Positions 6,696 through 7,025 of a DNA stretch of 32,000 nucleotides are shown here, one piece after another (position 1 is the stretch's first letter; every line of letters starts with the position of its first letter). The stretch is from Candidatus Heimdallarchaeota archaeon B3_Heim (GTDB lineage Archaea > Asgardarchaeota > Heimdallarchaeia > Hodarchaeales > Hodarchaeaceae): contig NJBF01000001.1 in assembly GCA_003144275.1 (NCBI GenBank), positions 1 through 32,000 on the forward strand, in the 5' to 3' direction. Both the position numbers and the translations under genes were made by a program. Under the pieces are notes generated by a model. That model had not been told where the DNA came from. It made no database searches and saw only the letters and a list, made by a program, of their open reading frames with translations.

Positions 6696-7025
6696 ATGAA
6701 TAATCGAAAAAAAGATGTTGTCTGGGACTCAAACGTTAATTCCCAAGGAACAACATCGGATAGTATTGAACGTATGATTAAAGTCCGTTTTAAGGACCCA
6801 CAACTTCCACCAGATCAAAATATCCGTGAAAAATATATTAACATAAATGGTACAGTTTTTCAAGCAATTACAGCAGCACGTGACGCATTTAATATTCCTG
6901 AAGTTGTACCAATCGCACTACTGTTTAAAGGTCGAAGAATGAATCCATCAAACAACCTTGTTTCGTACAATATTGAAGATAACGCCCTTCTAATGATAGT
7001 ACCTGACCAGATAAAAGGGGGGTAA
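6696..7025 (+). CDS. Ubiquitin-like modifier (beta-grasp) ending in Gly-Gly, with ubiquitin and UFM1-like features
   Basis: C-terminus IKGG-stop (already mature). LLFKGRRM...LVSYNI resembles ubiquitin LIFAGKQL...LSDYNI. DPQLP, FNIP, MNP and LMIVP resemble UFM1. It is adjacent to the E1 gene. Confidence 0.88.
   Translation: MNNRKKDVVWDSNVNSQGTTSDSIERMIKVRFKDPQLPPDQNIREKYININGTVFQAITAARDAFNIPEVVPIALLFKGRRMNPSNNLVSYNIEDNALLMIVPDQIKGG

Follow-up and report, generated by a model that had tools for sequence, protein, structure and literature searches.

The window analysed here, the first 32,000 nucleotides of contig NJBF01000001.1 of Candidatus Heimdallarchaeota archaeon B3_Heim (assembly GCA_003144275.1), carries on its forward strand, at positions 6696..7025, a gene for a small ubiquitin-like protein (Ubl) that lies among genes for ubiquitin-type activating (E1), conjugating (E2), ligating (E3) and deconjugating proteins. 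The protein (P0001) and its family are referred to by the working name Hod-Ubl. It is the first member recognised of a distinct Ubl family confined to the Hodarchaeales, which is probably neither ubiquitin proper nor UFM1. The gene starts with an ATG that is preceded by AGAGGT about 9 nt upstream and lies 22 nt past the stop of the preceding gene, and it encodes 109 amino acids ending in IKGG, followed by TAA. The sequencing runs listed for this stretch are DNA only, from marine-sediment and cold-seep metagenomes.

In the AlphaFold2 (AF2) model, built from 29 family members, residues 27–109 (6774..7022, +) adopt the beta-grasp fold of ubiquitin-type modifiers, with strands at residues 27–33, 43–49, 73–77 and 97–103, a helix at 54–65 and predicted local distance difference test (pLDDT) values of 95–97. 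Residues 1–26 (6696..6773, +) precede strand 1 as an N-terminal extension that is predicted to be disordered, with pLDDT values mostly below 60 (46–53 over residues 1–20), in agreement with the extension of about 25 residues that had been read from the sequence beforehand. Inside this otherwise variable region, a conserved KKDV[VI]WD is found at residues 5–11 (6708–6728), and it could serve as a short linear motif for interactions. At the other end of the protein, the di-glycine is directly followed by the stop codon and is available for activation, GG being invariant in 29 of 29 members. The earlier statement that the modifier is encoded in its mature form is borne out for this gene and for most of the family, since 21 of the 29 members end exactly at GG, the other 8 carrying 1–5 extra residues after it.

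The family has a narrow distribution. Homologues fall into 35 clusters of 53–96% identity, the named ones coming from Hodarchaeales or Heimdallarchaeota. Whole-genome searches found the family in 21 of 23 other Hodarchaeales genomes (20 of the 21 genomes of the source organism's own group and one of the two genomes of the sister family), and in none of the 59 other Heimdallarchaeia. When 1.8 billion representatives were searched exhaustively with phmmer, four further single-domain relatives came up and, ranked after them, polyubiquitins, with scores summed over their repeats; these were the only matches outside the family. The family-invariant positions comprise DPQxP, F-x-I-P, G79, N83, VPD-IKGG and KKDV[VI]WD, with P84 nearly invariant. 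Identity amounts to 74–87% within the genus and 56% to the sister family, compared with 54–60% for the E1 of the locus and 41–47% for its E3.

The original prediction had described this protein as a hybrid of ubiquitin and UFM1, from an alignment made by eye against human UFM1. Full UFM1 sequences, including a human-type one, were retrieved as references, and the 27-residue UFM1 fragment used in that alignment proved accurate, being 100% identical to UFM1 chains in the PDB. The spacings that had been reported are likewise exact: F65 to G108 in Hod-Ubl and F40 to G83 in UFM1 both span 43 residues, with 18 residues in each from the phenylalanine to the asparagine of NP, and 38 in each from the phenylalanine to the proline after strand 5. 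From the helix to the end, the two proteins align without gaps over 55 residues, with 10 identities, 21 positives and a BLOSUM62 sum of 33 (z 5.3), a score as high as this being found in 0 of 5000 shuffles. The match of DPQLP to DPRLP of UFM1 is reproduced by hhalign, but only when gaps of 5 and 4 residues are opened around the two motifs.

Three further kinds of comparison were made, namely pairwise alignment with z values (Smith–Waterman), profile-to-sequence search (HMMER) and profile–profile alignment (hhalign). The Smith–Waterman score of Hod-Ubl is 57 (z 7.3) against UFM1, over the full length, and 54 (z 8.1) against ubiquitin, over the C-terminal half. In hhalign, the family scores 29–33.5 against UFM1, with a probability of 52–82% over about 80 columns, and 32–38 against ubiquitin (80–90%), which is equally near or nearer, these probabilities being rough because profile diversity is low and the UFM1 set is mostly metazoan. 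UFM1 and ubiquitin, when compared to each other, score 10–16 (0.2–1.7%). As judged by these profiles, the family resembles UFM1 as well as ubiquitin, two proteins between which no similarity is detected, and the description as a hybrid holds since the direct profile–profile comparison scores both of them. By the same measure, likeness to UFM1 is not a general property of Asgard Ubls, as three control families score only 10–23 against UFM1: Heimdall ubiquitin (19–20, 4–6%), a second Ubl family of the same genome, encoded on its contig C86 (16–23, 0.2–18%), and a ThiS-like family of the Hodarchaeales (10–11, 0.1–0.2%). Furthermore, 150 column shuffles of the UFM1 alignment averaged 10.9 against the Hod-Ubl family and went no higher than 21, and the reversed alignment gave 13.7. 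HMMER points the same way, though less strongly: with a UFM1 hidden Markov model, the Hod-Ubl family was the best non-UFM1 target, with a maximum of 16.1. The UFM1-like features are the DPxLP loop, the F-x-[IV]-P helix end, the NP loop and the proline after strand 5.

The ubiquitin features that had been pointed out in the same region are real, residues 73–102 aligning in HMMER to ubiquitin 41–70 with 9 identities in 30 positions and a BLOSUM sum of 45, against UFM1 the same residues reaching only 14. The beta3–beta5 core and the GG end can be regarded as the ubiquitin-like parts of the protein, and with this core and end on the one hand and the loop motifs shared with UFM1 on the other, Hod-Ubl seems to lie between ubiquitin and UFM1 in sequence space. 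In Pfam, Rad60-SLD (PF11976) reaches 25.3 bits on Hod-Ubl with a cut-off of 23.8, and ubiquitin (PF00240) 19.5 bits, below its cut-off of 25.4; each of the two profiles matches 29 of 29 family members at E up to 10. The fold matches listed for the predicted structure include ubiquitin, SUMO, ISG15, Rad60 SLD2 and, among the top matches, Caldiarchaeum ubiquitin (6fno_D), with SUMOs of 11–21% identity at the top of the Swiss-Prot matches. The language-model neighbours are Rad60-SLD and ubiquitin clusters only. Of all hhalign comparisons, the highest score (33–42) was obtained between the Hod-Ubl family and the C86 family.

With regard to Pfam Ufm1 (PF03671, curated cut-off 27 bits), no signal above that for other Ubls was found, an outcome that the original prediction had itself named as speaking against it and that does so in part. 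Hod-Ubl has no match to this profile at E up to 10, a single member of the 29 is reached, with E 0.13, the gene is not among the weak PF03671 matches of its own genome, and a scan of 400 Asgard genomes gave nothing above the cut-off. Additionally, neither UFC1 (PF08694) nor Peptidase_C78 (UFSP) nor DDRGK has a match in the source genome, which is 94% complete. By the standard tests (Pfam, fold libraries and language-model neighbours), Hod-Ubl is not a UFM1.

The genes around Hod-Ubl form a conserved cassette, in which the E1, E2, E3 and protease genes all lie within 6 kb around it and are syntenic in relatives. The order is Arf-Arf, p264-JAB-E2 (reverse), p262-Ubl-E1, Zn110 (reverse), E3 and SPFH-EAP30 (reverse), and of the 12 loci fetched from relatives 9 show the whole order and 3 a part of it; the p262-Ubl-E1 trio persists in the distant sister family. 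The E1-like activating enzyme (7061..8299, +; 412 amino acids) is of the canonical type, with 169 bits to Pfam ThiF and PDB matches to UBA2 (114 bits), UBA1 (112), UBA3 (102, over residues 21–274) and UBA5 (65), and none of the four E1-like genes of the genome is of the UBA5 type. The E2 (5018..5569, −; 183 amino acids) is of the UBC type, with 84 bits to Pfam UQ_con, an HPN motif and a cysteine in a VCLSLI context; its best PDB matches are E2K/Ubc1, and UFC1 is not among the matches listed. From the asparagine of HPN to the cysteine of VCLSLI there are 15 residues. Typical E2s have 8 residues between the two, and relative to this spacing the active-site loop would carry a 7-residue insertion. 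Next to the E2 lies a JAB/MPN (JAMM) metalloprotease (4350..4922, −; Pfam JAB 38.9 bits, Prok-JAB 27.1 bits), which is syntenic in 10 of 12 loci and is, by homology, likely the deconjugating and processing enzyme.

The other members of the cassette are less readily assigned. p262 (5885..6673, +), the first gene of the trio, encodes a zinc ribbon and two UBC-fold/RWD-like domains, and is most like proteins of the FANCL (the top match), UEV and RWD kinds; it is doubtful that it is catalytic. It was considered as a UFC1-like E2 and rejected, as the 'HPN-like' asparagine is not conserved, the candidate cysteine is missing in a distant homologue and UFC1 is not among the matches listed. A complex prediction of p262 (residues 50–262) with the Hod-Ubl core scored 0.02, with the mark at 0.32, and is not evidence either way. 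The conserved gene downstream of JAB, p264 (3474..4268, −; 264 amino acids), belongs to no Pfam family and is 63–69% identical and syntenic in relatives, and Zn110 (8296..8628, −), a small zinc-ribbon protein of 110 amino acids, has weak zinc-ribbon Pfam matches only and is syntenic in 10 of 12 loci. SPFH/Band-7 and EAP30/Vps36-family (ESCRT-II-like) genes flank the cassette on one side (10548–12452, −) and two Arf-family small GTPases on the other (2326–3451, +), both syntenic across the genus. These flanking genes give a hint of membrane-linked targets.

The E3-like protein (8779..10539, +; 586 amino acids) has a UFL1-like winged-helix N-terminus, a cysteine-rich middle, a PCI/DDRGK1-like winged helix and a C-terminal RING-like finger. 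When a profile of its family (11 orthologues) was compared with all of the PDB, the top four matches were UFL1 (E 1.3e-6 to 1.3e-5, residues 25–169), while residues 467–526 matched the DDRGK1 winged-helix domain weakly, and residues 523–580 the RINGs of TRIM32, UHRF1 and NOT4, also weakly. Pfam PCI is found in 11 of the 11 orthologues and E3_UFM1_ligase in 6 of them. It is the sole UFL1-like gene of the genome, and by homology and synteny Hod-Ubl would be partnered with a UFL1-type winged-helix E3. Strong UFL1 homologues occur in 157 of 400 Asgard genomes, and in one Asgard family (f20) homologues of about 800 amino acids with 50–72 bits to PF09743 are found in 117 of 135 genomes (e.g. G182:C87:29712-30341; L127-L135). 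The linkage between Ubl and UFL1 is not general, because in nine sampled UFL1 loci of other Asgard families the Ubl, E1 and E2 profiles used here detected no such gene in the 10 kb to each side.

A further Ubl family of Asgard archaea (F24), reached via a weak Pfam Ufm1 match, is linked to a UBA5-like E1 and occurs in only two families among the 400 genomes searched. Its members end in a single glycine plus 1–4 residues (..[TP][KR]D[LV]LG) and adjoin a 272-amino-acid E1 whose top five PDB matches are all UBA5 (92.8 bits). Against UFM1 the Smith–Waterman z is 9.4, and pairwise there is no similarity to Hod-Ubl; in hhalign the family scores 26–30 against UFM1 and 25–27 against the Hod-Ubl family, with a probability below 2% for ubiquitin. 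For the 175-amino-acid protein beside this Ubl, the nearest language-model cluster is archaeal UFC1 (0.87), which is a lead only. The four genes lie in one operon (L144:8000-10843, −; G290:C1; relatives L136-L141), together with a JAB-like protein of 361 amino acids (a language-model lead, 0.84) as the fourth member beside the E1, the 175-amino-acid protein and the Ubl of 96 amino acids, and this may be a prokaryotic UBA5-UFC1-UFM1-like module.

Trees of the Ubl families were built on 82–83 columns, with no deep branch starred, and are suggestive only because of this small number of columns. In the first tree, each Ubl family formed a clade. The Hod-Ubl family, with support of 98/99, is therefore not nested within the ordinary Asgard ubiquitins, a nesting that would have told against the original prediction. 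When the UBA5-linked family was added, it paired with the Hod-Ubl family (93/82), and UFM1 joined the C86 family (69/52), a join flagged as a long-branch one. Without the long-branch C86 family, the arrangement became ((UBA5-linked F24, UFM1) 85/86, Hod-Ubl) 86/62, apart from ubiquitin (96/91). The Hod-Ubl family fits the picture of a ubiquitin-facing neighbour of a looser grouping of UFM1-like Ubls.

Taken together, these results favour a reading in which Hod-Ubl is the modifier of a Hodarchaeales-specific ubiquitin-type cassette, a family of its own that is placed between ubiquitin and UFM1 in sequence space and would work like ubiquitin; its probability is put at roughly 0.55. The analysis shows the gene and its fold, how far the family extends, the conserved gene order and the scores of similarity, whereas each biochemical step is inferred from homology and conserved synteny. 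Hod-Ubl would be translated with its di-glycine end already exposed, adenylated by the adjacent canonical-type E1 and taken up by it as a thioester, and then passed to the divergently encoded UBC-type E2. The 586-amino-acid protein, with its UFL1-like winged-helix scaffold and RING-like finger, would help to ligate the modifier to targets, and the JAMM protease would remove it and also trim those family members that have a short tail after GG. Such trimming has been shown for the Caldiarchaeum Rpn11 homologue (PMC6043591).

Among the closest known counterparts are the archaeal ubiquitin operons of the Caldiarchaeum subterraneum/Asgard type, which hold ubiquitin, E1-like, E2-like, RING E3 and Rpn11-like JAMM genes (PMC6043591, PMC9192718). 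The Hod-Ubl locus shares with them a GG-ending beta-grasp modifier, a single-chain E1, a UBC E2, a RING-type ligase and a JAMM protease, as well as an ESCRT-related EAP30 gene nearby and the fold match to Caldiarchaeum ubiquitin. It differs from them in that Hod-Ubl belongs to another family than the canonical Heimdall ubiquitin of the same genome, is encoded mature and bears the 26-residue extension, while the ligase has a UFL1-like winged-helix scaffold and the core trio adds a zinc-ribbon/double-RWD protein. The resemblance to SUMO comprises the Rad60-SLD score above cut-off, the disordered N-terminal extension, the SUMO fold matches and an E1 whose best PDB match is UBA2 (SAE2). Notwithstanding, no SAE1-like second E1 subunit is found among the genes of the locus, the E1 scores for UBA2, UBA1 and UBA3 are nearly tied, the E2 shows no preference for Ubc9 over other E2s, and identity to SUMOs in the Swiss-Prot fold matches is low.

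Several results weigh against this placement between ubiquitin and UFM1. UFM1 is absent among the fold matches listed from five libraries (Swiss-Prot, PDB, VIA-align wide, Atlas and AFDB clusters) searched with the predicted structure, and the HMMER median of the family is 15.6 to ubiquitin and 7.1 to UFM1. The hhalign profiles are of low diversity (Neff 1.2–2.4), with a UFM1 set drawn mostly from metazoans. Approximately unbiased (AU) tests reject no alternative topology (p 0.29–0.66), and the placement of UFM1 shifts with taxon sampling. The E3_UFM1_ligase score of the genome's own E3 is 18.7 bits, below the cut-off of 23.2. Finally, as judged by sequence comparison, the UBA5-linked family is a better UFM1 counterpart than the Hod-Ubl family. 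The suggestion that the protein sits between the UFM1 and ubiquitin branches is thus supported in part, by the two-sided hhalign similarity, by the UFL1-like E3 and by the tree without the C86 family, and not by Pfam, the fold matches, the canonical E1 and E2 or the deep nodes of the trees.

The same evidence bears on the reading that Hod-Ubl belongs to the UFM1 lineage proper, as a sister of eukaryotic UFM1 or close to its ancestor, inherited together with a UFL1-type ligase, eukaryotes having later been re-wired to a UBA5 and a UFC1 of different origin. This is possible, with the odds clearly against it. The Hod-Ubl family is the best-scoring non-UFM1 family for UFM1 in this analysis, DPxLP, F-x-[IV]-P, NP and the beta5 proline are common to both at identical spacing, and the ~80-column similarity comes with a UFL1-homologous ligase nearby, as the genome's only UFL1-like gene lies two genes downstream and is syntenic across the genus. 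Furthermore, the tree without the C86 family brings F24, UFM1 and Hod-Ubl together, AU tests do not reject Hod-Ubl with UFM1 (p 0.445) or Hod-Ubl with UFM1 and F24 (p 0.432), and the Hodarchaeales have been proposed as the sister lineage of eukaryotes (passages of PMC12962969). Nonetheless, the eukaryotic system (UFM1, UBA5, UFC1, UFL1/DDRGK1 and UFSP1/2) differs from the cassette. Hod-Ubl stands outside Pfam Ufm1 and ends in GG, with no tail to remove, rather than in V-G plus a tail, being one residue longer; the roles of UBA5 and UFC1 would fall to a canonical E1 and an E2 that bears HPN; the protease is a JAMM enzyme where UFM1 has a UFSP cysteine protease; the ligase, unlike UFL1, carries a RING-like finger; and UFC1, UFSP and DDRGK were not found in the genome. 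The reading of Hod-Ubl as a UFM1 orthologue is weakened by the better fit to UFM1 of the UBA5-linked family, with its single-glycine end and UBA5-like E1, and the tree that included all families places UFM1 elsewhere. A related and rather more speculative proposal, considered unlikely, is that the Hodarchaeales cassette preserves an ancestral operon pairing of a UFM1-like Ubl with a UFL1-like winged-helix E3, run by a canonical E1 and E2 and already present in the archaeal lineage closest to eukaryotes, from which the modifier and ligase of eukaryotic UFMylation came. UBA5 and UFC1 would then be later additions, taken from an E1-E2-Ubl module of separate archaeal or bacterial origin that resembled the UBA5-linked one in two other Asgard families.

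Hod-Ubl could instead be an ordinary, fast-diverged Asgard paralogue of the ubiquitin/SUMO kind, the UFM1-like motifs being convergent features of beta-grasp loops that have no phylogenetic meaning; in that case, the family would be new, but no more than one of the ordinary Ubl paralogues of Asgard archaea. The Rad60-SLD and ubiquitin scores, the lead of SUMOs in the Swiss-Prot fold matches and the highest hhalign score to the paralogous C86 family are in line with this, as are the presence of the proline after strand 5 in the C86 family too, the two gaps required for the DPxLP pairing and the at least three Ubl-E1 modules of the genome, which make paralogy rife. It is considered improbable, since the other Asgard Ubl families, including C86, score 17–23 against UFM1 where Hod-Ubl scores 29–33.5, the shuffled UFM1 columns stop at 21, the match to UFM1 spans about 80 columns and chance would hardly account for the independent link to a UFL1-like E3. 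That Hod-Ubl is no protein modifier at all, and acts as a ThiS/MoaD/SAMP/Urm1-type sulfur carrier or as a non-covalent Ubl adaptor, is very improbable. A C-terminal GG next to a ThiF-family enzyme is also a hallmark of sulfur-carrier pairs, but hhalign to the order's own ThiS/MoaD-like family is at null level (11.7), and ThiS-family genes occur separately in the genome. The E1, moreover, has canonical Ubl E1s as its nearest matches, the one to UBA3 extending over residues 21–274, and the synteny includes an E2, a RING-like E3 and a JAMM protease.

The preferred reading, a ubiquitin-type cassette with a modifier of its own family, adds to a field in which Asgard ubiquitin cassettes (PMC9192718, PMC6043591) and Asgard UFL1 homologues (PMC10183829; 10.1101/2020.10.19.343400) have already been described. 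According to one study, UFL1 and DDRGK1 are found in Asgard archaea, and UFM1 and UFC1 only in eukaryotes (PMC10183829). Asgard Ufm1 homologues at twilight-zone sequence similarity are described from a structure-based search in passages of a more recent one (PMC12962969; preprint 10.1101/2024.07.03.601958). There, as the same passages have it, proteins with Ufm1 as their best Swiss-Prot structural match were chosen, whereas the best matches of Hod-Ubl are SUMOs; the passages considered contain nothing on synteny with a UFL1-like E3. In the literature, no earlier description was found of the Hodarchaeales-only Hod-Ubl family or its measured two-sided similarity, nor of its fixed linkage to a UFL1-like winged-helix RING ligase with a canonical E1 and E2. 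For the origin of UFMylation it is of interest that the Hodarchaeales, as a proposed sister of eukaryotes, keep the only UFL1-like gene of the genome in the same conserved cassette as a Ubl that would be conjugatable and has UFM1-like motifs. The cassette provides a concrete set of proteins for asking whether ligases of the UFL1 type were at work in a ubiquitin-like cascade at a time when there was no UFM1.

Hod-Ubl is one of several Ubls in its genome, where two more Ubl-E1 modules lie at L003:1477-2965 and L004:3-1824 (contigs C10 and C86). One of them holds a canonical ubiquitin, which is found in 77 of the 83 genomes of the class; in the source genome it ends in ..TTGG plus 3 residues and is followed by its own E1 of 349 amino acids. 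The C86 module consists of two tandem Ubls ending in ..STAG(WN), followed by another E1, and a fourth E1-like gene lies on C15. One Asgard genome can thus run at least three separate Ubl-E1 modules. The C86 family was itself considered as a UFM1-like candidate, as its ..IPxSTAG end is suggestive by eye, and was set aside on account of its low hhalign score to UFM1. Outside this genome, proteins of about 640 amino acids in two Heimdallarchaeia genera (L008:1-1923, −; L010, L011, L013, L014) have tandem N-terminal beta-grasp-like domains followed by a long acidic region. The second of these domains scores 17.4 bits with Pfam Ufm1, below the cut-off, and shows a UFM1-like helix start, 'VPEAIPFAAT..'.

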